Source: Psychrobacter sp. DM4 (GTDB lineage: Bacteria > Pseudomonadota > Gammaproteobacteria > Pseudomonadales > Moraxellaceae). From it: a stretch of 32,000 nt of DNA. The notes below the pieces were generated by a model. That model saw only the letters and a program-made list of their open reading frames with translations, was not told the origin of the DNA and did not search any database. This document shows, in pieces, positions 1,775 to 30,283 of the stretch. The position numbers were made by a program, and so were the translations under genes. Each line of letters begins with the position of its first letter. Position 1 is the first letter of the stretch. The stretch is from positions 1,110,001 through 1,142,000 of the forward strand of contig NZ_CP195536.1 of assembly GCF_051307035.1 (NCBI RefSeq). The letters are read 5' to 3'.

Positions 1775-1837
1775 ATTTAGACTCTCATTTGATTTGTACC
1801 TTAGTTAATTTTGATGCAACAGGACTGGAGCCATACC

Positions 1838-3517
1838 ATGGCCGATTTAAAAGGATTTAACGATAAAGAGCAGGGACGCTCACACAATCCAAGCTCAACT
1901 TCGGGCAACTTAACTCGCACGGAAGTCTCAACAGATACTTTAGGTCTCAAAAACCCAGCCTTTTGGTACAGCGGCGGTTTTATTACCCTCTTTGTATTGA
2001 TGGCAATATTTGCAGAAGAGCAACTAGCCGTCGTCGTAAATACCGCTTTTGCTTGGTCAGCCAATATCTTTGGCCCCTTTTGGCAGATATTACTATTAGC
2101 GACTTTTGTGATTGCACTCGCCGTTGGTGCTGGTCGTACGGGACGAGTTATTTTGGGCAACCTGCCTAAGCCTGAGATGGATAATTTTAAGTGGATGGCT
2201 ATTTTGTTTTGTACGCTGCTTGCAGGTGGCGGAGTGTTTTGGGCAGCGGCTGAACCTATCGCGCATTTTGTCTCAGCGCCACCTTTATATGGTGAGTCGC
2301 CAGATTTGCAACAACGTGCTTTTAATGCTTTATCCCAGTCCTTTATGCATTGGGGCTTTTTGGCGTGGTCGATTGTCGATAGTTTAACGGCGATCGTCGT
2401 GATGCATTTGCATTATGACAAGGGTCTACCGCTCAAACCGCGTACGCTCTTGTATCCTGTGTTCGGCGAGCGCGTGCTCACCGGTCAGACCGGCGCTATT
2501 ATCGATGCTTGTTGTATTATCGCAGTAGCGGCAGGCACGATTGGACCTATTGGATTTTTGGGATTGCAGACGAGCTATGCATTAAATGAGCTGTTTGGCA
2601 TTCCTGATACTTTTATCACTCAGCTCCTCATTATTGTCTTCGCTATTATTCTCTATACGATTTCTGCGATCAGTGGTCTGGCTCGGGGTATGCAGCTGCT
2701 CAGTCGATTTAACGTCATATTAGCCGTTGTACTTATGGTCTTTATCTTAGCGTTTGGACCGACCAACTTTATTGTCAACGGCTATATCCAAGGCGTGGGT
2801 ACTATGGTTGACAACTTCATTCCAATGGCGACTTTTCGCGGTGATGAGGATTGGCTTGGCTGGTGGACGGTATTCTTTTGGGGTTGGTTCTTAGGGTATG
2901 GTCCTATGATGGCAATCTTTATCGCGCGCATCTCGCGTGGTCGTACCATTCGCCAGCTGATAACGACCGTTTGTATTATCGCGCCACTCGTGACTTGTTT
3001 TTGGTTCACCGTCGTTGGCGGTTCAGGTCTAGCTTTTGAGATTGCCAATCCGGGTAGCGTGAGCGCCGCTTTTGAAGGCTTTAACTTGCCAGGCGCGCTC
3101 CTTGCGGTCACCCAGCAATTACCGTTCCCTCTAATTACCTCGATATTGTTCTTGATTTTGACCACCGTCTTTATCGTGACCACAGGCGATTCGATGACTT
3201 ATACCATCAGTGTCGTTATTAGCGGCGAGCATGAGCCAAACGCTATGATACGTACCTTTTGGGGCGTAATGATGGGGATTACCGCTATTGTTTTGATCTC
3301 CTTGGGTGCAGGCGGCGTCAGCGCATTACAATCCTTTATCGTGATTACCGCAGTGCCCGTGTCCTTTATTTTACTACCGTCACTCTGGAATGGACCACAA
3401 ATCGCTCAGCAAATGGCGCGAGATCAAGATCTGTACCGACCTAACCGTGTAGAAACCAATCATAAAATCGCTGAGGAGCAGCTTGCTAAAGAAAGACAAG
3501 CTAAGAATATTAAGTAA
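1838..3517 (+). CDS. BCCT-family (betaine/carnitine/choline) transporter
   Basis: The ORF is 1811-3517. I prefer the ATG at 1838 because GGAG lies 7 nt upstream. The protein is polytopic and carries the BCCT signature WTVFFWGWFLGYGPMMAIFIARISRGRTIRQL. Confidence 0.9.
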   Translation: MADLKGFNDKEQGRSHNPSSTSGNLTRTEVSTDTLGLKNPAFWYSGGFITLFVLMAIFAEEQLAVVVNTAFAWSANIFGPFWQILLLATFVIALAVGAGRTGRVILGNLPKPEMDNFKWMAILFCTLLAGGGVFWAAAEPIAHFVSAPPLYGESPDLQQRAFNALSQSFMHWGFLAWSIVDSLTAIVVMHLHYDKGLPLKPRTLLYPVFGERVLTGQTGAIIDACCIIAVAAGTIGPIGFLGLQTSYALNELFGIPDTFITQLLIIVFAIILYTISAISGLARGMQLLSRFNVILAVVLMVFILAFGPTNFIVNGYIQGVGTMVDNFIPMATFRGDEDWLGWWTVFFWGWFLGYGPMMAIFIARISRGRTIRQLITTVCIIAPLVTCFWFTVVGGSGLAFEIANPGSVSAAFEGFNLPGALLAVTQQLPFPLITSILFLILTTVFIVTTGDSMTYTISVVISGEHEPNAMIRTFWGVMMGITAIVLISLGAGGVSALQSFIVITAVPVSFILLPSLWNGPQIAQQMARDQDLYRPNRVETNHKIAEEQLAKERQAKNIK

Positions 3518-3698: not shown

Positions 3699-5459
3699 AT
3701 GAATGTGATTCAGGCAAGTAATAATAGTCTTGACGTAGTGGCACAGCCTTTACGCAGCCCTGATACAGTGATGAGTGCTCAAAGGCTAGGTGCTATGCAT
3801 CAAACGCGCATCAGCTTTGTGCGCACACTACTGCGTAAAATTGATAAGGAGCAATGGACGCTGACAACTCATCTTTGGGATTTGGACGAGGGCGGCTATG
3901 GGCAAGTGATTTATCGCTTGCAAACGCCTGAGCACACTTACCATCTCGTCGTGTTTTGCCAAGCGCTTGCCGATGATGAGCGTAACGATCGCGTCATAGC
4001 GCAAAAGTGGGATGTTACCTTCGGTCTGGTATTTGGCGAGATCAGCCAAGAGCTGCTCGACAATCTAAAGGCTAACGTGCCGCTACAAGAAGCGGGACGC
4101 AACTCCAACATGGTTATGGTATTGGCGCGCGCCAACAAAAGCGTGCGCGTCTTTGATCATATTGTCTCATCATTAGCCGAGGGTCAGCAGCCTGATCTCG
4201 ATATACTCGCGCAAGTCGGTTATATCCTGCGTACCACGGCGGTCTATGGCAATGGTAAGTTTGGCATTTACGACTTTAAGCCACTGGATCACAGCGAGGA
4301 TTTTAATCAGTCGTTTCGCGCGCAGATGTGCGCCGTTTATTTGTTACGTGAATTTAGCCTAGATTGGGTAGATTTTTTGGCGAAGAAAAAAGGCGGCAGC
4401 AAAGCGGTCACCTTGCATCCAGAGATCAAGCGGTATCTAGGTATTGGTAATGCGACGGGATTAGGTATGGCGCCTTATCTGATTAATCATCCTTGTATCG
4501 TTGATCAATGGCTGACCACGCGTGAAGAGGCGCTACAATCTGTTCTAGTCTGTACGATTGAGCCTGAAAGGCTTGCTTATTTTTCAAGTTTATTGAGCCG
4601 CGCCATTCAGCATTTCACTGAAATTATCACTATTAATGAGCAGCAAGTGACGTTGAATGAAACTGTCGTCGCAGAGCTTACGCTATTACAAAATAACATG
4701 CTCATGACAATGAAGGGCTATAAGCGTTGGGGTGATTTTTTGCAAGATCATGAGCATCTCAATTATGAGAGCCAAGAGGTGATGATCTCTTGCTTAATTG
4801 AGCTGTATCCTGAGCGCGTGGATAACTTTCAAGAAAAGGTCAATGCCGATGAGACCCTATCGCTGCCTAAAGGCAAAACCGTTCAAGACTTAATAACAGT
4901 GCTTGAGACTCGCTATCAATGGGCCATTACGATAGATTTCAGTGTGCCTGATAACCGCTATTGGTTTTGGTATCGCTCAGTGGACAAAGAGGAGCCACGT
5001 ATGGGCGTACGCGGACAAGAGCAGGGCGATGATCGAGAGTTATTCTTAGATATTGCCCGCCAAACCAACAAGCTATACTTGACGCTAAAACAGGCTGATT
5101 CCGAGCAGCTTATCTCGCAGTTTATCTTAGGTGCGCCCAAGTATCGCGCTATCGCCAGACGCGTCTGGACGATGGGGCATAAGCCTATGGGCGATATCCA
5201 AATCAATGTGCTCAAAAAGGACACTTTGCCTATTCATCTACTCCGCTGTAAGCTTTCTATGTTTGGCGCAACCAAATTTGACCCCAGATCCGATCGCTGG
5301 GTACGTGTCACTTTGTTCCAAGGCGCGCCTTTATTTTATGAAGTACATAGTGATGAGTGGCTGTTTCCGCTATTGCCTAAGCTTGACGAGTCTGCGGCAG
5401 AACCCAAGAATACAGCTGTACTAAAGGTATCGGCGTCAGATCAGGAGGCGGCGCTATGA
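3699..5459 (+). CDS. Hypothetical cytoplasmic protein, 586 aa, no family recognised
   Basis: A long ORF with no competing frame. AAGG lies upstream of the ATG. I see no signal peptide, TM segment, Walker A motif or obvious catalytic motif. Confidence 0.75.
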   Translation: MNVIQASNNSLDVVAQPLRSPDTVMSAQRLGAMHQTRISFVRTLLRKIDKEQWTLTTHLWDLDEGGYGQVIYRLQTPEHTYHLVVFCQALADDERNDRVIAQKWDVTFGLVFGEISQELLDNLKANVPLQEAGRNSNMVMVLARANKSVRVFDHIVSSLAEGQQPDLDILAQVGYILRTTAVYGNGKFGIYDFKPLDHSEDFNQSFRAQMCAVYLLREFSLDWVDFLAKKKGGSKAVTLHPEIKRYLGIGNATGLGMAPYLINHPCIVDQWLTTREEALQSVLVCTIEPERLAYFSSLLSRAIQHFTEIITINEQQVTLNETVVAELTLLQNNMLMTMKGYKRWGDFLQDHEHLNYESQEVMISCLIELYPERVDNFQEKVNADETLSLPKGKTVQDLITVLETRYQWAITIDFSVPDNRYWFWYRSVDKEEPRMGVRGQEQGDDRELFLDIARQTNKLYLTLKQADSEQLISQFILGAPKYRAIARRVWTMGHKPMGDIQINVLKKDTLPIHLLRCKLSMFGATKFDPRSDRWVRVTLFQGAPLFYEVHSDEWLFPLLPKLDESAAEPKNTAVLKVSASDQEAAL

Positions 5460-6181
5460 TCGTCTCACGTAACGAGATCGTCTCTATGGTATACAAGGCG
5501 TTCTCAGGCTTGCACCGTGAAGTCGGTGAGGCAGATTTAGTCGCTACTATGGTCGCTGAATTGCAAATGGCAGGGCTGGATGGTGTGGGCCAATTTAACA
5601 ACGCTACGCCTTTTATTCTAAAAGAACAAGACACGCCTATAGAGATTATTCATCAAGATATAGGTGAGGTTAGTCTAAATTTGCATAACAGTAGTCTGGC
5701 CTGTCACCTGCCCGCGGTTATGGACTATGCACTTGAGCTGATGGACAATCGCGATCATTTCAAAATGACCTTGCAAAACTGTCATAATCGCTGGCTTGCA
5801 TATAGCGAGCTTGTGAGTTTGGCGGCAAAAGGCTTAGCTTGCCTTGCAAAATGGGACAACGGTCATGCGCCTAAGCATACGCTATTTACTTTAAATCAAG
5901 GTTTTGTCTATCCAGATATCTACTTTTTTGATGAGAGGCAAACGCGTCACGATACCAACGATATGGTCATTGAGCTTGCCACTAGCAATTTTGACATTGA
6001 GCAAGAGATTGAACACTTTAGTCATAAGATATCGACCGATGAGCTGTTTGAAACCCATCAGCGCGCATGGAAGCAAGGCATCTACGTTGATGATGAACAG
6101 TGGGCGATACTCAAACAGACGGCCGCTGCGATACTGGTCGAGAACAGTGAAGCTTCAAGTAAAGGCGCAGGCGGCGTCTAG
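5456..6181 (+). CDS. Hypothetical acidic protein, 241 aa, translationally coupled to the 586-aa ORF
   Basis: Its ATG overlaps the upstream stop (ATGA, 4-bp overlap at 5456-5459). A terminator follows downstream. No family could be confidently recognised. Confidence 0.7.
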   Translation: MIVSRNEIVSMVYKAFSGLHREVGEADLVATMVAELQMAGLDGVGQFNNATPFILKEQDTPIEIIHQDIGEVSLNLHNSSLACHLPAVMDYALELMDNRDHFKMTLQNCHNRWLAYSELVSLAAKGLACLAKWDNGHAPKHTLFTLNQGFVYPDIYFFDERQTRHDTNDMVIELATSNFDIEQEIEHFSHKISTDELFETHQRAWKQGIYVDDEQWAILKQTAAAILVENSEASSKGAGGV

Positions 6182-6485: not shown

Positions 6486-7526
6486 ATGACACGCAATTTG
6501 TCAGCTCATTCACTCAAAGCATCGATAGTCATACTGGTTTTGGTATTACACGGCGCTACAGTGTGGGCGATGATGTCTATAGAAACGCCTACGCGCGCTG
6601 AGATAATACCTGTCACCAAACCGATTCAAATAGAGCTGATCACACTGGAGGCGGCTACGAAAAGTGTAAACACAGACTCAAAACTTGTCACGCCTATACC
6701 TGAAAACGTAAAAGTAGCCGAGCCTCAATCAACACCAAAGTCAGTTGCACCAAAACCAGCAGTCTTGCCAGCCAAAGACAAACCTGTGCTAGCAGTCAAA
6801 GAGTCTAATAAATCATTACAGATAGCTGATTCCAAGATAGAAGAAACACAAGATAATATATCATCAACGGATACTCCCAATACAGAGTCTAGCCAAGAGC
6901 GTACCTCTTCAGCGCTACAAAGTGCGACAATAACAGAGTCCAGAACTTCATCTAGCGATGCCACTCAAACAGAAGACTCCGAATTTGATCTTGCTGCTAT
7001 GATTAGAGCAATCAACGCGCAGCACAAGCGCGAGCAAGCAGAGCAGCGTCGGTCTTTGGCCAGACAGACCGATAGGAAGCTCAAACAGCAAGAAGAATGG
7101 CGATTACAGGCTGAGAATGAAACCATTACTAAGATGCTTGCTTTAGCGGCTGAGCAAGCCGCGCAGCAACAAGAAGATATGGACAAGGTTGATAAGTCAG
7201 TGACCAAAAGCGATGAGATAACGCCTTTTATCGCAGATTATGGCAGCTGGCAGGATGAACGCGAACCGATTACTAGCCTGTCTTCAGTTGTCTGGAGAAG
7301 TATCGATAGAGATTTGGGGGATGTATTTATCGTATTACTAGAGTTGCATGTCACTAAAGAGGGCGATATCACCGAGGTACAAATACTTGAGACGTCAGGT
7401 AGTCCAATCATCGATGCTATATCAACCACGCAAGTCAGAGGCGGGCAACTTAATCCAATACAACAACAAGGTATCAAGGTCGATGCTATTGTGCCGATGT
7501 CTTTGATATACGAGCGACCATCCTAA
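6486..7526 (+). CDS. TonB-like energy-transducer family protein with a long low-complexity/coiled-coil linker
   Basis: It has an N-terminal TM anchor (IVILVLVLHGATVWAMM), a Pro/Lys-rich stretch (PKSVAPKPAVLPAKDKP) and an S/T/Q/E-rich linker. The C-terminal roughly 80 aa resemble a TonB C-terminal domain (VTKEGDITEVQILETSGSPIIDA). Confidence 0.6.
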   Translation: MTRNLSAHSLKASIVILVLVLHGATVWAMMSIETPTRAEIIPVTKPIQIELITLEAATKSVNTDSKLVTPIPENVKVAEPQSTPKSVAPKPAVLPAKDKPVLAVKESNKSLQIADSKIEETQDNISSTDTPNTESSQERTSSALQSATITESRTSSSDATQTEDSEFDLAAMIRAINAQHKREQAEQRRSLARQTDRKLKQQEEWRLQAENETITKMLALAAEQAAQQQEDMDKVDKSVTKSDEITPFIADYGSWQDEREPITSLSSVVWRSIDRDLGDVFIVLLELHVTKEGDITEVQILETSGSPIIDAISTTQVRGGQLNPIQQQGIKVDAIVPMSLIYERPS

Positions 7527-7597
7527 CAACAGCTACGCCGCAATTAAGTGGTAAGGCAATGAGCTATGATTAAATAGTCTTTGCACATTGACAAAAT

Positions 7598-7632
7598 AAA
7601 AGCCCTGAACTCACAATGAGAACAGGGCTTTT
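7598..7632. terminator. Bidirectional intrinsic terminator between convergent genes
   Basis: AAAAGCCCTG (7598-7607) pairs with CAGGGCTTTT (7623-7632). A-rich and T-rich flanks lie on both sides. Confidence 0.7.
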
Positions 7633-7665
7633 ATTTTGAGAGTTTGAAACTTGACTGTTAAATGT

Positions 7666-8814
7666 CTAACCAAGCGCCCGCTCAAAGAACCACCATAGCG
7701 CAACAACTATGCTTATAAGCGATCCCAGATAAAAAATACCCCATTTATAAAACTGCGTATGACGCAGTATCAGGGCTAGCGGGAAAACAACGGCGATAAA
7801 TACCAGTTGCCCAAGCTCAATTCCGACATTGAAACTAAGAAGCGCTAGTACGCGGGCACTAGTCGCTAATGGCAAATCGACAAGGACATTGGCAAAGCCA
7901 AAGCCGTGAATCAGACCAAATACAAAGGCCAAATAGACGGCTCTAACTCTAAGTAACGGTACCAGATTGTTCAGCGCAGCAAAGGCAATAGATAGCGCAA
8001 TGATAGATTCAATAATTTGCGCAGGTATACTGACAACTTGCAAAGCAGCCAGGCTAAGCGTGATTGAATGCGCCAAGGTGAATGACGTTGCAATCCAAAA
8101 TACCTCTAATAGTGCTGATTTTGGTTTGCTCACCGCCACCAATTGTTTTTGTTTACGTATATACACCGCTGGTATTAACAATACAAACAAGAATAGCAAA
8201 TGATCCCAACCAATGAGCAAATGATGTATACCACTTTTTAAAAAGTTAAACGCCATAGCCAGCATGCCTGTATCAGCTTGCGAGCCAAGCGGACTTTGTC
8301 CCACTGACAATACCTGCAGTGAAGTATCGTCACTTGCTTCGGTCAACAGCAGACGGTGATTGGCATCAATACCTGCCAGTGTCTGATAGTCAAGATTATC
8401 TAAAGTAGAGGCACAGGCCACTTTAAAATCAGTATATAGATAATTGAAGCCGCCGCGAGTATTGATAGCTAAAGGCGCAAATGTGGTGACTTGGCAGGGT
8501 TGTCCTACGCTTTGCAAGCTAACTTGCGAGGCAATTAGCGCCTCTATGAGCGGCGCTTGTGCTTTAACCTCCGACCAACTCACTTCACTATCTTGGTTTG
8601 GGTCTATATCTATGAGCAGCGCTAAATCTCGTAGAGACAACTCATATTGAGCTGCGTACTGAGACTCAGAATCAATAGCATTTAAGTTCAAATAAGCGGT
8701 ACTAGACTCATGTGCTTGTACTAGAGTAGCTGTCATTGCAAGCAGCATTGTTAGCAGTGAGAGTATCAAATAGCGATAAGTGCGCCGCCAATGTAGTCCG
8801 TTATAAGTGCTCAT
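7666..8814 (-). CDS. Long-form HupE/UreJ-like membrane protein (periplasmic N-domain plus C-terminal permease domain)
   Basis: It has a signal peptide ending LVQA, a soluble domain of about 190 aa and then multiple TM helices. The TM region carries the HupE/UreJ-type motif GIHHLLIGWDHLLFLFVLL. Confidence 0.72.
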   Translation of the reverse strand: MSTYNGLHWRRTYRYLILSLLTMLLAMTATLVQAHESSTAYLNLNAIDSESQYAAQYELSLRDLALLIDIDPNQDSEVSWSEVKAQAPLIEALIASQVSLQSVGQPCQVTTFAPLAINTRGGFNYLYTDFKVACASTLDNLDYQTLAGIDANHRLLLTEASDDTSLQVLSVGQSPLGSQADTGMLAMAFNFLKSGIHHLLIGWDHLLFLFVLLIPAVYIRKQKQLVAVSKPKSALLEVFWIATSFTLAHSITLSLAALQVVSIPAQIIESIIALSIAFAALNNLVPLLRVRAVYLAFVFGLIHGFGFANVLVDLPLATSARVLALLSFNVGIELGQLVFIAVVFPLALILRHTQFYKWGIFYLGSLISIVVALWWFFERALG

Positions 8815-10001
8815 TAAGACTTATCCTTATTCATCGCTTGCGTCGCAGTACAGTTTAGACACTCCTCAATTTTGCCTAAGATTAAAGCGCGCTCAAGCGT
8901 AGGGTACTCAAACTGCGTATCGCTGATAAATTGACGAATAATGTTAATGTCCTTTTTGCTATCCGCTTTTATGGCAGTGGTTGCATATAGCACGATATCA
9001 GCGGTTTCGCGCTGCTGCTGCCAGTTGTCCTGCGCTAAGTTGAGCGCGTCATCATTTTGCTTAGCAAGCAGAGCGTACATTGCTTGCTCACGCGTGTGGG
9101 CTTTTTCGCCTCGCAATTGCCAAACGTCGATACGCTCTTTCATTAATGCAAGGTTTGCATCCGCTTTAGGGTCGCCCATCTTCATTTGCGCCTCGATAAG
9201 GCGCAGCAGCAGCGCGTCTTTATCGGTATGATTTTGTAGCAAATCGATTACTTGCTGGTATTTACCGATACTGAGTAACCAATCCGCGCGCGCCATCAGT
9301 GCTGGTACTGTTTGATCATCTATGACCGCAAACACTTGATTAGCAAGGGTGGTATCAGAGCTACGCAGGGCTGCATCTGCTTGAATTAAGTATATCCAAA
9401 GCGCGGTTGACGCATCTAAACGCGGCGCTAAGCTAGCAAGCGAATTGAGCGTCTGCTTAGCTTGACTTAGCTTCCCTGTCATGCTTTGAATTTGAGCGAT
9501 ACAGGCCGCCTGATACACCTCTAATGAAGGATCGTTTAGCTGGTCGCAATAATCCATAGCCTCATCGAACTGTCCTTGCACAACCAGCAGCGAGGATAGC
9601 GTTAATAAGGCATCTGGGTGCGCGGGGTCTTGATTGAGTATTTGCGCTAGTATCTCTTTTGCCTGAGTAAATCTATGGTCGGATTGGAGTGCTCGCGCTC
9701 GTAGCATCAGCGTCTCTATGCTTTGATCTTCGCTTTGATCTAATTGTGCGCGTGCTTGCCCGAGCGCGCGCGGGTCGCCTTCTAAATAAGCGCGTTCTAG
9801 TAGCTGCTTGGCATTGTCCGCACTATTAAGAGTAGTAGTGGCGGTTAGATCAGATACGCTGCTATAGCGAGGAGAGGGGGAGTCTGTTGGCAAAGTCTCA
9901 AGTATTTGCAAATCATCTGTCGGTATAAAGGGCGCAGCATATAATGGCTGGCTACTAAGTATTGCTAGTAGTAAGCCGATAGAGAGCTTGATCCATAGCA
10001 T
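8814..10001 (-). CDS. Secreted tetratricopeptide-repeat (TPR)-like protein
   Basis: It has an N-terminal signal peptide (LLLAILSSQPLYA|AP). The body is a helical repeat with recurring A/L/Q-rich 34-aa-like units. AAGGAG lies 8 nt upstream. Its stop overlaps the next ATG (TAATG). Confidence 0.7.
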   Translation of the reverse strand: MLWIKLSIGLLLAILSSQPLYAAPFIPTDDLQILETLPTDSPSPRYSSVSDLTATTTLNSADNAKQLLERAYLEGDPRALGQARAQLDQSEDQSIETLMLRARALQSDHRFTQAKEILAQILNQDPAHPDALLTLSSLLVVQGQFDEAMDYCDQLNDPSLEVYQAACIAQIQSMTGKLSQAKQTLNSLASLAPRLDASTALWIYLIQADAALRSSDTTLANQVFAVIDDQTVPALMARADWLLSIGKYQQVIDLLQNHTDKDALLLRLIEAQMKMGDPKADANLALMKERIDVWQLRGEKAHTREQAMYALLAKQNDDALNLAQDNWQQQRETADIVLYATTAIKADSKKDINIIRQFISDTQFEYPTLERALILGKIEECLNCTATQAMNKDKS

Positions 10002-10028
10002 AAAAGTGCTCCTTGCAAAACGTAAAGA

Positions 10029-10058
10029 AGCACCTGATCAGTAACCCGATTAGGTGCT
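10029..10058 (-). promoter_or_regulatory. Intercistronic stem-loop between the lipoprotein and TPR genes
   Basis: The 7-bp stem is perfect, AGCACCT (10029-10035) with AGGTGCT (10052-10058), and has a 16-nt loop. On the minus strand it is followed by a partly T-rich tract and then the TPR gene SD. Confidence 0.4.
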
Positions 10059-10077
10059 GGCTGTCTCTTATACTACA

Positions 10078-10365
10078 CTATAAAGAAGCGTTAGCATCTT
10101 CAATAGCGATAGGCTCTGCCCGATTGGCTTCAGGCAATACAATACGATCTATGTCTTGCGGTTCGGCAGTGTTGACACCGTTTACATCTGGGCTAGCATC
10201 AATTACATCAGAGGTTCTATCTACTGCCAATTGAGCATTGTTTTGATCTCTTATCAGGTCATTATCAACCTGATTTTGAGTATCGAAATTATTATTATCA
10301 CTGTCGGAGCAACCAATAAGAGCAGCTGATCCGGCGAATACCATTGCTAAAAGTACATGGCGCAT
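10078..10365 (-). CDS. Small acidic Asp/Asn-rich lipoprotein
   Basis: The lipobox LIGC follows a hydrophobic leader (MRHVLLAMVFAGSAALIGC). I prefer the ATG at 10365 because AGGAG lies 7 nt upstream. The track ORF starts at 10371. Confidence 0.65.
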   Translation of the reverse strand: MRHVLLAMVFAGSAALIGCSDSDNNNFDTQNQVDNDLIRDQNNAQLAVDRTSDVIDASPDVNGVNTAEPQDIDRIVLPEANRAEPIAIEDANASL

Positions 10366-10392
10366 TGTCATTCTCCTTGAGTTAGCGTCAGC

Positions 10393-11907
10393 TTATCGAC
10401 TATCTGAATCTGAACCTGAGTTTCCACTACCAGCATTAGGGGTAGTTAGATAAGGGAACACTGAGTCAAAGTCATTCGCAGTTTTGAGAGTAGCGCGATC
10501 GGTGAGCAATGCTTTACCCGCTTTGGCATCAGCTGGTACACAAGTCACCGCAGCTGGTAGACCGGCGTGACACAGTGCACCCATAGAGACTCGAAGCGCA
10601 ATATCAGTTACATCATCACCCGGGCGTCGACCATTTGGAAATCCAGCAGTATCTACACCAGTACTAGGTCGTCCATCAGTTTGAACGCTTTGAATAAGAC
10701 TAAGTAGTCCTAAGTCGTTTTGATTGCCAGCGGCCACAGCAGCAATGTTGGTGTTTAAGCGCAACATGTCGGCTGGAACTTGATTGGCATTAGCAGGTTT
10801 GTTAACCGTTGGTACGCCCGTCAAAAACGCAGTCACAAGATCCTGACGTGGAAAGTTGGTCGGCGCAGGTGCTGCAAATAAAGTCTCAATAAGTTTTGGA
10901 AGCGTTGGATAAAAGACATAATCTTTAAAGTTTGCCACATCATCTTTTGGCTCTGAAGCATTGAACTTATCTTTGTCTTTTAGACCGATAACCACTTCAT
11001 TAACTAGCGGCATACCTAGTCGTGAAACTTGCGTCCAAGCGCCGCCTTTTTTGGCAGTAGTACTAATGCCTGAAGCAGGATTGCCATTTACCAAGGTTGC
11101 TTGACGCACACTTGCTGTCGTCCAAGCACCGATGACAGGGTCAGAACCAGCAACTAAACAAGCTTTTGGCACTTCCATTGCAATAGAGGTGACGTTCTTA
11201 TCTGCTAATATATTAGTTCCACCAGTACGCGACAGTGTAGGATCAAGATTAATTAGATCAAATACTTTACCTAGATCAATCGAAAAGCCTTCAGCACGTT
11301 GACCGACGAATACTTTACCCTTAGCATTACAGCCTGGAATGGTTAAATCGTTAATAAATCCTCTTGCATAAGTAGGGTAGTCAGCGAAAGATTTGGTACC
11401 AATATAATCAAACGGCTTATCAAAATTACCTAATGACGTACGGTTGCCACTACGGCGATCACCCTTGACCATGGTTACTTCATATTTTTCACTAGTTTGT
11501 AAATTATTTTTGATCGACGCATCACCAGCATTGGATAAAGGAATAGCGACTTTTGATGGACCGCCTGAATCGATCTCAATGCTATTTAGGTCTTGAGTAA
11601 AATCAAACTGAAAGGTGATATCTTCAACAGCATCGCCATCGTTATCGATGTGAATCTCATACAGCGCATCTGGGTCAAGAGCGAAATAATTAGGCCCGCC
11701 GTATGCATCCTGTAATGGCAGATAGTTTGCGATAATCGTGACGTAATCACTACGGTTGTTCTCGTAACTATTGAACATATAAAAGTCAGAGGCATCGACT
11801 TTTGGAGTTTTGGTAATTGAAGGGGCTTCGCGGTGACTTGAAGCGACTGCACTTGCACTCATGCTTAGAGCTATCGCTGCTATCAGTGCTTTTGTCGTGT
11901 GTTTCAT
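10393..11907 (-). CDS. Secreted DUF4331-like protein (uncharacterised family)
   Basis: The track ORF (to 12072) has an implausible N-extension. The ATG at 11907 has AAGGA upstream and yields the signal peptide MKHTTKALIAAIALSMSASAVA. The SSHREAPSITKTPKVDASDFYMF motif that follows is, as I recall, the hallmark N-terminus of DUF4331. Confidence 0.72.
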   Translation of the reverse strand: MKHTTKALIAAIALSMSASAVASSHREAPSITKTPKVDASDFYMFNSYENNRSDYVTIIANYLPLQDAYGGPNYFALDPDALYEIHIDNDGDAVEDITFQFDFTQDLNSIEIDSGGPSKVAIPLSNAGDASIKNNLQTSEKYEVTMVKGDRRSGNRTSLGNFDKPFDYIGTKSFADYPTYARGFINDLTIPGCNAKGKVFVGQRAEGFSIDLGKVFDLINLDPTLSRTGGTNILADKNVTSIAMEVPKACLVAGSDPVIGAWTTASVRQATLVNGNPASGISTTAKKGGAWTQVSRLGMPLVNEVVIGLKDKDKFNASEPKDDVANFKDYVFYPTLPKLIETLFAAPAPTNFPRQDLVTAFLTGVPTVNKPANANQVPADMLRLNTNIAAVAAGNQNDLGLLSLIQSVQTDGRPSTGVDTAGFPNGRRPGDDVTDIALRVSMGALCHAGLPAAVTCVPADAKAGKALLTDRATLKTANDFDSVFPYLTTPNAGSGNSGSDSDSR

Positions 11908-12243
11908 ACGTATCCTTGTAGAGAAACTAAAATAAGAGTGAAGTAAATTATTGAAACTACAGTGATTTTTATTATCAATAACCATAGTTGTTACAAAGTA
12001 TACCCTTAAATTTCTGTAGCTGTTTGTCTTTCTATCGGCAATATTGCTACGCTCGTCAGATGTTACAAACATTTACACTTTTGAGATACTTATACTCTGG
12101 TAGAAATTAATTAAGTTTTACTCGCGAACGTTGCAATCATAAACATTAACGACCGGTCTCATTCGGAATTAGAGGAGTGAACAAAGTGATTTGCACAATT
12201 CCTTCATCATTGGCAATAAACAATATATCTAAAGTCTGTTTTA

Positions 12244-26324: not shown

Positions 26325-26897
26325 ATGGAAACAGAAAACGCGTACAAACGTAAAAAACAGCCAGAAGTTGTCCGTCGGGCGCTGCTCGATCAGGCAGCAC
26401 GAATAACGCTAGAGCAGGGGTTGTCTAAAGTGACCTTTCAAGCGGTCGCTGATGCCGTTGGGGTGACCAAGGGCGGGGTGATGCATCATTTCGCGACCAA
26501 GAATGTGCTAATTACCGAAGTGTTTGATGATGCCATGGCAAAGTTTGAGGCCGAAGTAGATATGGCAATGGCTAAAGACCCTGTATCTTATGGCTCTTTC
26601 ACCCGGGCTTACATCGATGCCACCATTAGTCTCGGGCAAAAAGGGCAAGCCGAGTTCGATAATCAAGCGACGTTATATGTGTTGATGTTAGGTGATCGTG
26701 AGCTGCGCGAGCTGTGGGCTAAGTGGGCAAACGAGCAATTACAAAAGCACGAAGCGACTGACAATACCGAAACGCTTTGTATGGTGCGTTTGGTTGCTGA
26801 TGGTATTTGGCTCTCTGATTTTTCAGGCATCAACATATCGGACAAAAAATCGCTACGCGAGCGGTTAATAAAAATGACACAGCGTGAGAACGAATAG
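26325..26897 (+). CDS. TetR/AcrR-family transcriptional regulator (in the position usually held by betI)
   Basis: The N-terminal TetR HTH reads VTFQAVADAVGVTKGGVMHHF. Its ATG begins 1 nt after the SMR stop codon. It is only generically similar to BetI by eye. Confidence 0.85.
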   Translation: METENAYKRKKQPEVVRRALLDQAARITLEQGLSKVTFQAVADAVGVTKGGVMHHFATKNVLITEVFDDAMAKFEAEVDMAMAKDPVSYGSFTRAYIDATISLGQKGQAEFDNQATLYVLMLGDRELRELWAKWANEQLQKHEATDNTETLCMVRLVADGIWLSDFSGINISDKKSLRERLIKMTQRENE

Positions 26898-27028
26898 AGC
26901 TTAGTGATTTACTAAAGAAGTAGACACTTTACAACAGACACCCGTTAAATTTTTAAAACTCAAACAATGACGACATTATTTGGTATTAATTTTTATAAAG
27001 CTTTTGCCAATCGTCTTAAGGAATACCT

Positions 27029-28531
27029 ATGACCATTTCAAACGAAACAAAAAACATCATCGATTTAGAGCAAACCCAAACCGCCTATATCAATGGTCGT
27101 TATCTAGCAGTCGATGACACGTTATCTACTTTTGAAGATATCAACCCTGCGACGGGTGAAGTTTTAGCGACCATCCAACAAACGACCAATGAGCAAATCG
27201 AAGACGCTGTTAAAGCAGCACAAAAAGGTCAAAAAGTTTGGGCAGCACTGACAGCAGTTGAGCGTGGTCGAATCCTATCAAAGGCCGTTGAGATATTGCG
27301 CGAACGCAATGACGTACTGGCATTGCTCGAAACCAAAGATACAGGTAAAGCGTATTCTGAAACCAAGTATGTAGATATCGTCACTGGTGCGGATGTCGTT
27401 GAGTATTATGCGGGTCTGGCACCGATGATTGAAGGTCGTCAGATTCCGCTACGTGATACCAGTTTTGTTTATACTCGCCGTGAGCCACTTGGCGTGGTCG
27501 CTGGTATTGGCGCATGGAACTATCCGATCCAAATCGCGATGTGGAAAGCAGCACCAGCATTAGCCGCTGGTAACGCGATGATTTTTAAGCCATCAGAAGT
27601 CACGCCGTTAACGGCTTTAAAACTAGCAGAAATCTTCACAGAAGCGGGATTGCCAGATGGTGTCTTTAACGTCGTGCAAGGGAACTATGAAGTGGGTCAG
27701 GCATTGACGGATCATCCTGATATCGCAAAAGTATCATTTACTGGCGGCGTACCGACGGGCAAAAAAGTCATGTCAAGCGCGGCAAGCTCCTCGTTGAAAG
27801 ACGTGACACTAGAGCTGGGTGGTAAGTCACCATTAATCATATTTGAAGATGCAGATATTGATACGGCTGCGGACATCGCGATGATGGCGAACTTCTATAG
27901 CAGTGGTCAGGTATGTACCAATGGCACGCGCGTGTTCGTACCCAAGTCATTACAAGCCAAATTTGAAGAAGCTATTTTAACGCGTGCCAATCGTATTAAG
28001 TTGGGTGATCCAATGGATGAGAGTATCAACATGGGACCATTGGTCAGCTTCCCGCATATGCAAAGAGTGCTTGGCTATATCGAGCAAGGTAAAGCAAGTG
28101 GCGCACGATTGCTAACGGGCGGTGACCGTGTGACGACAGGCGAGTTGGCAAGCGGCGCATTCGTTGCCCCGACTGTTTTCACTGACTGCACCGATGAGAT
28201 GACTATCGTACGTGAAGAGATATTTGGTCCAGTGATGTCGATATTGACTTATGAGACCGAAGAAGAAGTCATTCGCCGTGCCAATGATACCGAGTACGGC
28301 TTGGCAGCAGGGGTGGTAACCGCTGATTTGACTCGCGCACATCGAGTGATCGGTCAGATTGAAGCGGGTATCTGTTGGTTAAATACGTGGGGCGAGTCAG
28401 CTGCTCAAATGCCAGTCGGCGGTTACAAGCATTCAGGTGTTGGCCGCGAAAACGGCATTGAAGCTCTTGAGTATTATACGCAGACCAAATCTATCCAAGT
28501 AGAGTTAGGCGCGTTTGAGTCTGTATTTTAA
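27029..28531 (+). CDS. betB: Betaine-aldehyde dehydrogenase
   Basis: An ALDH with catalytic motifs ([21 protein letters not shown]), lying directly upstream of choline dehydrogenase. AAGGA lies 6 nt upstream of the ATG. Confidence 0.9.
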
Positions 28532-28585
28532 TAAACTATATTTTATTAATTCTTATTTTAAACAGACTATATTATGGAGCATTTT

Positions 28586-30283
28586 ATGACATCAACCACA
28601 CCTGAGTATGACTACATCATCGTTGGCGCAGGCTCAGCAGGAAATGTGCTGGCAATGCGTTTGACCGAAGATGCCAACATTAAGGTGTTGCTGTTAGAAG
28701 CGGGTCGTCCAGACCATCGCTTAGACTTTCGCACGCAGATGCCAGCGGCGCTCGCCATGCCGTTGCAAGGCACCACTTATAACTGGGGATACAAAACCGA
28801 TCCCGAGCCGAATATGAATAATCGCGTGATGGACTGCGGTCGCGGTAAAGGTCTTGGCGGCTCATCGTTGATTAATGGTATGTGCTATATCCGTGGCAAT
28901 GCGCTCGATTTTGACGATTGGGCGAAAATCAAAGGTTTAGAAGATTGGACTTATTCAGACTGTCTGCCTTACTTTAAAAAGCTAGAAAACTGCGACGCTG
29001 GCGAAAACGATTATCATGGCGTGGGTGGTCCAGTTGAGATGACTACTTCAAAGCCAGGAGTCAATCCGCTGTTTGAAGCGATGATTGAAGCGGGCGTACA
29101 AGCTGGCTATCCAAGCACTGATGATCTAAATGGCTATCAGCAAGAAGGCTTTGGGCCAATGGATCGCTTTGTGACGCCCAATGGTCGCCGCGCATCAACG
29201 GCTCGCGGTTATCTTGACCGTGCCAAGCCGCGTAGCAATATCACGATTTTGACTGGTGCATTGACCGATGTCATCTTGTTCGATGGTAAGCGTGCTGTCG
29301 GTGTCAAAGTAGAACATCAAGGTCAAACTAAAAACTTTTACGCATCTCGTGAAGTGATTGTTTCATCGGGCGCGATTGCCACACCGCAACTGTTGCAGCG
29401 CTCTGGCATTGGTCCTGGTCAATGGCTTAAAGATGTAGGCGTGACTGAGATTTTAGATTTACCGGGTGTCGGTAATAATTTACAAGACCATCTAGAGCTG
29501 TATATGCAGTATGAATGTAAGCTACCGGTCTCAATTGCACCTGCCAATAAATGGTGGAACAAGCCAGCGATTGGTGCGGAATGGCTATTTAATGGCACAG
29601 GGCTTGGTGCTTCAAATCAGTTTGAAGGTGGCGGCTTTATCCGTACCGATGAGAAATTTACGCATCCTAATATTCAGTATCATTTCTTGCCGTTAGCAGT
29701 GCGCTATGATGGTCGTAGCGCGGTCAAATCACATAGCTTCCAAGCGCATGTCGGTTCATTGCGCTCGCCAAGTCGTGGTCGTGTCAAGCTGACCTCAAAA
29801 GACCCAAGCGCGCATCCAAGTATCTTATTTAACTATATGTCTCATGACCAAGACTGGCAAGAGTTCCGTGCTGCCATGCGCATCACTCGTGAGATTATGC
29901 ATCAGCCAGCGCTTGACCCTTATCGTGGACGTGCTATTGCGCCGACCGATGATCTAGTGACCGATGCGCAGTTAGATGAATATGTCCGTAACCATAGTGA
30001 GACGGCTTATCATCCTTCTTGTACTTGTCCAATGGGCGAAGGTAATGATTCGGTCGTCAATGGCGAAGGGCTGGTACATGGTATCGATGGTCTGCGAGTC
30101 GTTGATGCCTCTATCATGCCCAACATCATCAGTGGCAATCTCAACGCAACCACTATTATGTTGGCAGAAAAAATCGTTGATAAGATGCGCGGCGTACAGC
30201 TGCCACGCTCAACAGCGGACTATTATACGGCCAATGGTGCACCATTGAGAGCTGAGCCGATGCGTGCTTATGGTTCTGTTTAA
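28586..30283 (+). CDS. betA: Choline dehydrogenase (GMC oxidoreductase)
   Basis: The N-terminus [22 protein letters not shown] parallels E. coli BetA, and GMC signatures run throughout. I prefer the ATG at 28586 (GGAG 6 nt upstream) over 28574. Confidence 0.93.

Follow-up and report, generated by a model that had tools for sequence, protein, structure and literature searches.

The closest described relatives of the system considered here are the 'anglerases' Ang-1 and Ang-2, in which an immunoglobulin (Ig)-like domain with a histidine as its first mature residue (His1) is fused to a permease of the PF13795 family (Franco Cairo et al., Nat Commun 2025, PMC12537917). Ang-1 binds Cu2+ with a dissociation constant (Kd) of 74 nM and Ni2+ with a Kd of 220 nM, using a mono-histidine brace, and the Ang domain was proposed to 'fish' metal ions and feed them to the permease (PMC12537917). 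The neighbours of the Ang-1 gene were mostly unknown proteins, DUF4198, indigoidine-A-like proteins and PfkB kinases (PMC12537917). The locus described here lies in a 32,000 nt stretch of the genome of Psychrobacter sp. DM4 (contig NZ_CP195536.1, positions 1,110,001–1,142,000); the whole of this stretch is called the window below, and coordinates without a locus label refer to it. Four genes on the minus strand code, in order of transcription, for a DUF4331 protein, a small acidic lipoprotein, a secreted tetratricopeptide repeat (TPR)-like protein and an anglerase-like protein that ends in a HupE/UreJ-2 permease. The first and last of these products are both 100% identical to Psychrobacter sp. 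DM4 proteins. On balance, the four genes probably form the core of a conserved trans-envelope system for the acquisition of a trace transition metal.

The anglerase-like protein (7666–8814, minus strand, 382 aa) has two distinct parts. The periplasmic half (8266–8814) comprises the signal peptide and a beta-sandwich domain, and the transmembrane half (7666–8265) matches PF13795 (HupE_UreJ_2; residues 191–353 of 382, 148.3 bits against a cutoff of 24.5, E = 2e-43). The signal peptide is predicted to span residues 1–34, which leaves His35 (codon 8710–8712) as the first mature residue, and the A34|H35 junction is invariant in 46 homologues and at least 90% conserved in 58 sequences taken from the loci described below. 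Across the same 46 homologues the invariant residues are A34, H35, C107, C134, D150, H153 and R154 in the periplasmic part, and H198, G202, D204, H205, H249, S250, E269, H303, N329, E333 and Q336 in the transmembrane part. An AlphaFold2 model (predicted local distance difference test score, pLDDT, 89.5) has a beta-sandwich up to about residue 183, in which three helices lie between strands 2 and 3, and then the helical permease. In a Foldseek search with this model, the top PDB match was 9GCE, the structure of Ang-1 with Cu (E = 3e-5, target TM-score 0.60; 12% identity in the structural alignment). Further matches were to the Zn-binding protein ZrgA (8F1B, 8EZW) and to PA4063 (7BGO), with E values of about 1e-4 to 1e-3 and target TM-scores of 0.54–0.62.

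The likeness to the anglerases thus covers a signal peptide, a mature His1 (100% conserved), an Ig-like beta-sandwich with the same placing of the three helices, a flexible linker and the PF13795 domain, and both kinds of protein occur in Pseudomonadota. The subfamily to which the window protein belongs differs in having its own invariant residues, C107/C134, D150, H153 and R154; these include a second His (H153), a candidate that may form part of the metal site. The gene neighbourhoods differ as well, since the neighbourhood text of PMC12537917 is without DUF4331, TPR or extracytoplasmic function (ECF) sigma factor genes and gives TonB receptors only for DUF4198. Going by the structural model, the 382 aa protein is probably anglerase-like in architecture and mechanism, and it probably represents a separate class because no sequence similarity to Ang-1 was detected. 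An earlier note on this DNA, made from the sequence alone, had stated that only the permease half had a family with a known role; this is outdated for the periplasmic half of the same protein and still holds for the other three proteins.

More distant comparisons place the protein further. With the HupE/UreJ family (PF04955; for example HupE of Rhizobium leguminosarum) it shares related Pfam models, a mature N-terminal His, the sequence H-x-x-x-G-x-D-H in the first transmembrane helix (here HLLIGWDH) and further transmembrane His and Glu residues, but it matches PF13795 and not PF04955, has in addition a periplasmic domain of some 150 aa, and is not encoded beside hydrogenase or urease genes. 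ZrgA of Vibrio cholerae and PA4063 of Pseudomonas aeruginosa have the same fold and are likewise periplasmic metal-binding partners of membrane transporters; they differ in being stand-alone proteins that bind Zn, work with ATP-binding cassette (ABC)-type transporters and are under Zur control, and identity is 12–16%. Neither a Zur box nor an ABC transporter is present at the window operon. In CopC–CopD and YcnJ, a periplasmic copper-binding beta-sandwich with an N-terminal His passes metal to an attached or adjacent inner-membrane permease. Here the likeness is one of mechanism, by analogy; the folds and families are unrelated, and there is no CopC or CopD Pfam match in the window.

The same set of genes recurs well beyond Psychrobacter. 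One genome per species was scanned with the DUF4331 profile, which gave 80 loci from Gammaproteobacteria (Acinetobacter, Marinobacter, Alcanivorax, Pseudomonas and Solimonas), Betaproteobacteria (Acidovorax, Variovorax, Massilia, Duganella, Janthinobacterium, Rhodoferax, Methylotenera and others), Nitrospirota, Myxococcota and Thermoanaerobaculia. In the 51 fully flanked loci (at least 4 kb on either side) all six-frame open reading frames (ORFs) were searched with the window proteins, and 33 metagenome loci with sufficient downstream sequence served as an independent sample. The earlier note had named a lack of conserved co-occurrence of these families as a refuting outcome, and both samples strongly showed the opposite: the canonical order DUF4331–lipoprotein–TPR–long HupE is present in 38 of the 51 genome loci, from Gamma- and Betaproteobacteria, Nitrospirota and Myxococcota, and in 27 of the 33 metagenome loci. 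Taken singly, a TPR gene lies near DUF4331 in 42/51 genome and 32/33 metagenome loci, a long-form HupE gene in 41/51 genome loci, and the small lipoprotein is detected by phmmer in 27/51. All six long-HupE homologues examined (42–47% identity, from unrelated metagenomes) lie in the same four-gene order, with DUF4331 of about 490 aa, a protein of 78–84 aa (no Pfam match), a TPR-like protein of 382–413 aa and a HupE of 382–418 aa, and with the TPR and HupE genes no more than 2 nt apart or overlapping by 4 nt. Unbiased clustering of neighbouring ORFs returned as further recurrent partners only a TonB-dependent receptor (TBDR) of about 700 aa, an ECF sigma factor and an anti-sigma factor with an RskA_C domain. 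The arrangement is, as judged from gene order in the sequences, far beyond chance, since the four genes keep their order from phylum to phylum.

Several departures from this order were seen. At one set of loci (L038, 9875–16297; L026, L063 and L073) an Undibacterium receptor gene sits between the lipoprotein and TPR genes, and in Myxococcota the TPR–HupE pair lies upstream of DUF4331. In L011 (10004–15136), L096 and L123, which include Acinetobacter tjernbergiae, the TPR gene is followed directly by a TBDR gene. One contig (L013, 6976–11527) carries the DUF4331 gene and the genes around it twice, as mirror images of each other, which is probably an artefact of palindromic assembly. The DUF4331 loci without TPR and HupE genes show heterogeneous contexts, and naive ORF calling is unreliable on high-GC contigs. 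In one of them (L033, 5224–11539), a single case, an orphan DUF4331 gene with a promoter of the ECF18 type (see below) adjoins genes for a P1B heavy-metal ATPase, in which there are two HMA domains, and for a binding protein of the SBP_bac_5 (NikA/Opp) family.

The DUF4331 gene occupies 10393–11907 (minus strand) and codes for 504 aa from an internal Met, the ORF running on to 12072. Its product matches PF14224 over the full model (positions 1–421 of 421, residues 23–490) with 470.3 bits against a cutoff of 27 (E = 9e-141). A Sec signal peptide is predicted at residues 1–22, so that the predicted mature N-terminus is Ser23-Ser24-His25 (codons 11833–11841), followed by Arg-Glu-Ala-Pro. An AxA-type cleavage site and then SSHREAP are found at all 84 loci with a placeable start (with Ala-Ser-His in three). 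Among 150 more distant representatives at 50% identity the strict motif is present in 92, and many of the others have SSH-x-[ED]-A-P; among 91 strict-motif sequences counted, 83 have Ala at position -1. Hence the sequence pattern of an amino-terminal Cu(II)- and Ni(II)-binding (ATCUN) site, which is any residue, a non-Pro residue and then His, is present at the predicted cleavage site, and cleavage there would leave a free amine and His3, which fits the ATCUN definition. His25 is also the sole conserved His of the protein, and there is no conserved Cys or Met. The remaining invariant residues include many Asp, in the motifs HIDNDGD and NGRRPGDDVxD, and several Arg.

DUF4331 proteins are large (about 480 mature residues) and share 48–58% identity across phyla, and the family numbers 4,584 representative clusters (50% identity) at E ≤ 1e-3. 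An AlphaFold2 model of the window protein (pLDDT 87.8) gave no fold match in the PDB, there was no sequence match there either, and no catalytic family signature was found.

The second gene (10078–10371 for 97 aa, or 10078–10365 for 95 aa from the second ATG, minus strand) codes for a lipoprotein rich in Asp, Asn and Glu. Its lipobox, L-I-G-C in MRHVLLAMVFAGSAALIGC, ends a signal peptide, agrees with the pattern [LVI][ASTVI][GAS]C and can be read directly in the sequence, as the earlier note had reported. The protein has no Pfam match, and two conserved Glu-Pro motifs lie near its C-terminus. Small proteins at the same position in other taxa (78–96 aa) carry the lipobox Cys and the EP...EP motifs, and these common features indicate that they are true homologues. 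The TPR-like protein (8814–10001, minus strand, 395 aa) has a predicted signal peptide at about residues 1–22 and matches TPR_19 (52.2 bits, cutoff 25), ANAPC3 (32.1, cutoff 27.2) and TPR_14 (29.5, cutoff 23.5). These matches are confined to residues ~60–190, the remainder being helical and without family assignment; sequence matches in the PDB are to generic TPR proteins only. In a profile of 110 sequences the conserved residues are His109, Cys152, Cys167 and His302-Arg-Glu. Pfam profile searches thus bore out the earlier DUF4331, TPR and HupE_UreJ_2 assignments.

The four ORFs, which the earlier note had placed co-directionally on the minus strand within 7666–11907, were all present at these coordinates. 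The operon-like packing that it described largely stands. The TPR stop and HupE start codons overlap by one base (TAATG, 8812–8816, read directly in the sequence), which, with the close spacing at the other loci, points to translational coupling, and the 76 nt gap between the lipoprotein and TPR genes holds a hairpin (10029–10059, minus strand) with a folding energy of -23.2 kcal/mol (z = -2.0). The operon ends at a bidirectional intrinsic terminator (7598–7632, both strands), a GC stem between an A-tract and a U-tract that is common to the operon and a convergent TonB-like gene; it folds at -28.1 kcal/mol (z = -6.7), and none of 200 shuffled sequences folds equally well. A gap of 21 nt after the DUF4331 stop codon, also given earlier, fits the 97 aa lipoprotein start only. 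The AAGGAG Shine-Dalgarno sequence lies 1 nt 5' of the first ATG and 7 nt 5' of the second, a spacing that favours the second ATG (95 aa), and the gap is therefore 27 nt.

A TBDR gene is adjacent to the block in 14 of the 51 fully flanked genome loci and 7 of the 33 metagenome loci; in Psychrobacter none adjoins the operon. The linked receptors form one family (L004, 11234–13360, and 26 related receptors), in whose plug domain His is invariant within QHSG, LDHGTD and HAHGQGY; a GFHSNDARG motif is found as well. The His-rich plug is weakly suggestive of, and consistent with, a metal-ion substrate. Assignment of these receptors to a characterised subfamily was tried and dropped, since NCBIfam and PDB searches placed none of them; in the NCBIfam search none reached the cutoff of a copper (OprC/NosA), siderophore, heme or B12 receptor subfamily, no copper-receptor model gave a match, and PDB sequence matches were to the BtuB plug only.

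Most lineages also appear to share a promoter. The motif TG[CA]ATCC-N15-18-CGT[AC] occurs within 300 nt 5' of DUF4331 in 51 of 80 loci, against a mean of 1.45 (maximum 6) in shuffled sequences. It is also found 5' of 13 of 30 receptor genes: some receptor genes are co-directional with the operon, and the motif precedes those that are separately transcribed and is absent where the receptor follows the operon co-directionally. Many sigma genes are preceded by it as well. Of the linked regulators, the sigma factors have their best scores with SigK-like models, the anti-sigma factors with RskA_C. In the ECF re-classification supplement, the ECF18 promoter is given as TGCATCTT / CGTA, and DUF4331 is listed as conserved at position +2 of subgroup ECF18s13, without a function. 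The motif (TG[CA]ATCC-N16-CGTA) and the SigK-like and RskA_C matches agree with that supplement. The ECF18s13 entry differs from the present description in that it lists the domain alone, with no operon, receptor or function.

Psychrobacter differs again, in having neither the sigma genes nor the promoter motif: the ECF18 sigma/RskA pair and the TGCATC..CGTA promoter are absent from the window and from Psychrobacter relatives. The region 5' of the DUF4331 gene (11908–12243, minus strand) instead holds a -10-like box, GGTATACT (TATACT, 11997–12002; GGTATAGT box), which the Psychrobacter relatives share, and an upstream CCGATA (12033–12038) which is also kept in their alignments, as CCGATNA. A stretch resembling a Fur box, ATTGATAATAAAAATCACT (~11975–11995, minus strand), in the DUF4331 5' leader and 3' of the -10-like box, was rejected as such because it is not conserved in six relatives of the Psychrobacter lineage.

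One further gene beside a receptor may be mentioned: in L006 (15054–15608) a fasciclin-domain gene adjoins it. Fasciclin proteins are a classic output of the SigK/RskA regulon in mycobacteria. ECF18 groups have diverse, functionally uncharacterised secreted proteins as neighbours, for example fasciclin and DUF4394, in the ECF re-classification supplement.

Given the observed gene content, the conservation of the cluster, its regulon membership, the invariant N-terminal His, the fold match to 9GCE and the permease motifs, we infer the identity of the metal, the direction of transport (import), the roles of the DUF4331, lipoprotein and TPR proteins, and the hand-offs from protein to protein, as follows. 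In most taxa a dedicated TBDR would bring the metal through the outer membrane, either as such or as a complex. The secreted DUF4331 protein would then bind the metal in the periplasm at its Ser-Ser-His N-terminus, with the TPR protein and the acidic lipoprotein acting as a scaffold or tether. From there the metal would be handed to His1 of the Ang-1-like domain, and the HupE/UreJ-2 permease would move it across the inner membrane by way of its conserved transmembrane His, Asp and Glu residues. In most lineages the SigK-like ECF18-type sigma factor and RskA-type anti-sigma factor would drive the operon together with the genes for the receptor and for the sigma factor itself, and in Psychrobacter a different promoter would drive the operon. 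Cu or Ni is favoured as the cargo because of the two N-terminal-His chemistries and the published affinities of Ang-1, but this choice is tentative and somewhat more apt to be wrong than right; by the precedents of ZrgA/PA4063 and HupE, Zn or Co could also be carried, and is not favoured. In its complete form the proposal describes a new import route, made up of a TBDR with a His-rich plug, DUF4331 as an ATCUN-type metallochaperone of new fold, a TPR scaffold with an outer-membrane lipoprotein, a third, sequence-distinct class of anglerase and, in most lineages, an ECF18/RskA switch. Taken whole, with every part as described, this route is possible but less likely than not.

The suggestion of a capture, scaffold and import module had already been made in the earlier note. 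It is reinforced by the Ang-1-like fold with His1, by the TBDR and ECF18-type regulon of other taxa, and by the X-X-His N-terminus of DUF4331, so that the overall interpretation given there is supported.

A number of observations weigh against metal acquisition as set out above. The ATCUN reading hangs on a predicted signal-peptidase site, and the four invariant residues after the His (R-E-A-P) suggest a role beyond that of a simple X-X-His site. The conserved Asp and Arg residues of DUF4331 (DNDGD, NGRRPGDD) could be Ca2+ sites or the pocket for an anionic ligand. The structural neighbours of the periplasmic domain are not uniform in their metal, Ang-1 binding Cu/Ni and both ZrgA and PA4063 binding Zn, and similarity to Ang-1 does not extend to sequence: a profile of the 46 homologues found nothing at E ≤ 10 among the PDB chains, a set that should include 9GCE, as this entry is present in the PDB library of Foldseek, and a phmmer search with the single sequence found nothing. 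All linked TBDRs fall below every NCBIfam subfamily cutoff, the best being TonB-siderophor at 56–101 bits against 223.5. The window has no Fur, Zur or NikR-type operator or riboswitch that could be found, and the periplasmic domain of the anti-sigma factor is without obvious metal ligands, only generic RskA_C motifs being conserved. Uptake systems are usually under metal-sensing repressors, and here there is an RskA-type ECF pair. About 20% of DUF4331 loci are without adjacent TPR and HupE genes, and a few consist of DUF4331, lipoprotein, TPR and TBDR genes without HupE; in these the permease is either dispensable or encoded elsewhere. Lastly, full-text literature searches found no paper describing the operon.

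The mode of regulation is also a ground for a different account, in which the operon is a response to metal stress or a buffering system. Metal or redox stress in the envelope would free the ECF sigma factor, Cu or Ni would be held in the periplasm by DUF4331 and the Ang-like domain and passed by the permease to detoxification systems in the cytoplasm, as the CopC/CopD pair works within copper-resistance operons. Control by an ECF18-type sigma factor and an RskA-type anti-sigma factor, and not by a metal-starvation repressor, would be expected of such a response, and SigK/RskA pairs are redox-sensitive. The orphan DUF4331 gene of L033 lies beside a P1B heavy-metal ATPase, although this context is a single case. 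For a member of ECF18, RpoP of C. metallidurans, the ECF re-classification supplement reports an effect on Ni/Co resistance, but RpoP falls in subgroup s4 and the DUF4331-linked sigma factor in s13. The TBDR in the same regulon is an energy-driven importer, which suits scavenging better, and no efflux pump, multicopper oxidase or other resistance gene is a conserved neighbour. A stress response is unlikely, if still deserving of consideration.

DUF4331 could, alternatively, be a Ca2+-dependent periplasmic enzyme or a binder of metal chelates (a metallophore or other anionic ligand), in which case it would process the cargo imported by the TBDR or set it free, the freed ion alone would be taken up through the His1 domain and HupE, and the N-terminal peptide would serve in docking, for example to the TPR protein, and not as a metal site. 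TPR domains typically bind short peptides. The size of DUF4331, its unusual conservation across phyla, its DxDxDG-like (HIDNDGD) and NGRRPGDDVxD motifs and its several invariant Arg would all suit such a role, as would a conserved N-terminal block that reaches four residues past X-X-His. The fold, being without a counterpart in the PDB, leaves an enzymatic function possible, yet the same searches gave neither a catalytic family signature nor a fold match to argue for one. There are no conserved genes for metallophore biosynthesis or export nearby, and the sole conserved His of DUF4331 is at mature position 3. Taken together, an enzyme or chelate binder seems quite improbable. The weakest alternative is a cargo other than metal, in a module that maintains the envelope or serves the cell surface, is controlled by an ECF sigma factor for envelope stress and has a HupE-like protein in a non-transport role, as the diverse secreted proteins tied to ECF18 groups (fasciclin, DUF4394), the fasciclin gene beside the receptor in L006 and the lack of an identified signal for the anti-sigma factor might suggest, but it is very improbable in view of the invariant transmembrane His, Asp and Glu of HupE/UreJ, the invariant mature His1, fold matches to metal-binding proteins only, the His-rich receptor plug and the X-X-His mature N-terminus of DUF4331.

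The genes on either side of the operon include those for an IclR regulator, an acyl-CoA dehydrogenase, beta-oxidation enzymes, a BCCT transporter and bet-like proteins. They agree with the earlier description of the flanks as unrelated catabolic genes, with the exception of the convergent TonB-like gene (6486–7526, plus strand). The TonB_C match of its product is barely over the cutoff, at 25 bits. In another Psychrobacter, exbB and exbD come after its orthologue (L090, 34% identity); both are absent here. This gene was considered as a component of the system and dropped, as its adjacency is kept only in part of Psychrobacter. At 1811–3517 and 26325–30283, a BCCT transporter and a run of genes for a TetR regulator, an aldehyde dehydrogenase and a GMC oxidoreductase resemble a choline/betaine oxidation set. 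Between 3699 and 6181 (plus strand), an ORF of 586 aa without a Pfam match overlaps a DUF3726 gene (5456–6181) by 4 nt, and the two resemble an uncharacterised gene pair. On the terminator hairpin, a sub-threshold Rfam match to the ohsC small RNA (7593–7670, minus strand; 37.7 bits against a gathering cutoff of 50) probably reflects a terminator-like structure only; beyond this match, Rfam (E ≤ 1) gave no riboswitch or other RNA element in the window.

The PF13795 anglerase permease class has been known since October 2025 (PMC12537917). What is new is the joining of DUF4331 with its lipoprotein and TPR partners, the linked receptor and the ECF18 regulon into one system, for which no describing paper was found. 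Full-text searches for DUF4331 itself likewise gave no paper, and the two mentions found are both in supplementary files: the neighbourhood listing in the ECF re-classification supplement, and a source-data sheet of PMC12537917, apparently for a DUF4198 neighbourhood, in which it has a count of 2. A large family without an assigned function is thereby placed in a conserved operon and regulon around an anglerase-type permease. The Ser-Ser-His N-terminus and the linked receptor offer direct experimental handles on it. If the proposed relay is true, two N-terminal-His chemistries, X-X-His and His1, would operate in succession, DUF4331 would represent a new periplasmic metallochaperone fold, and an ECF18 subgroup would have its first physiological output. 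All of the DUF4331 family, which comprises over 4,500 clusters at 50% identity, would then have a function, and the relay would account for the entry of trace Cu or Ni into the cytoplasm, with no ABC transporter, in many bacteria of soil, fresh water and the sea, among them Nitrospira, myxobacteria, Marinobacter and Psychrobacter.

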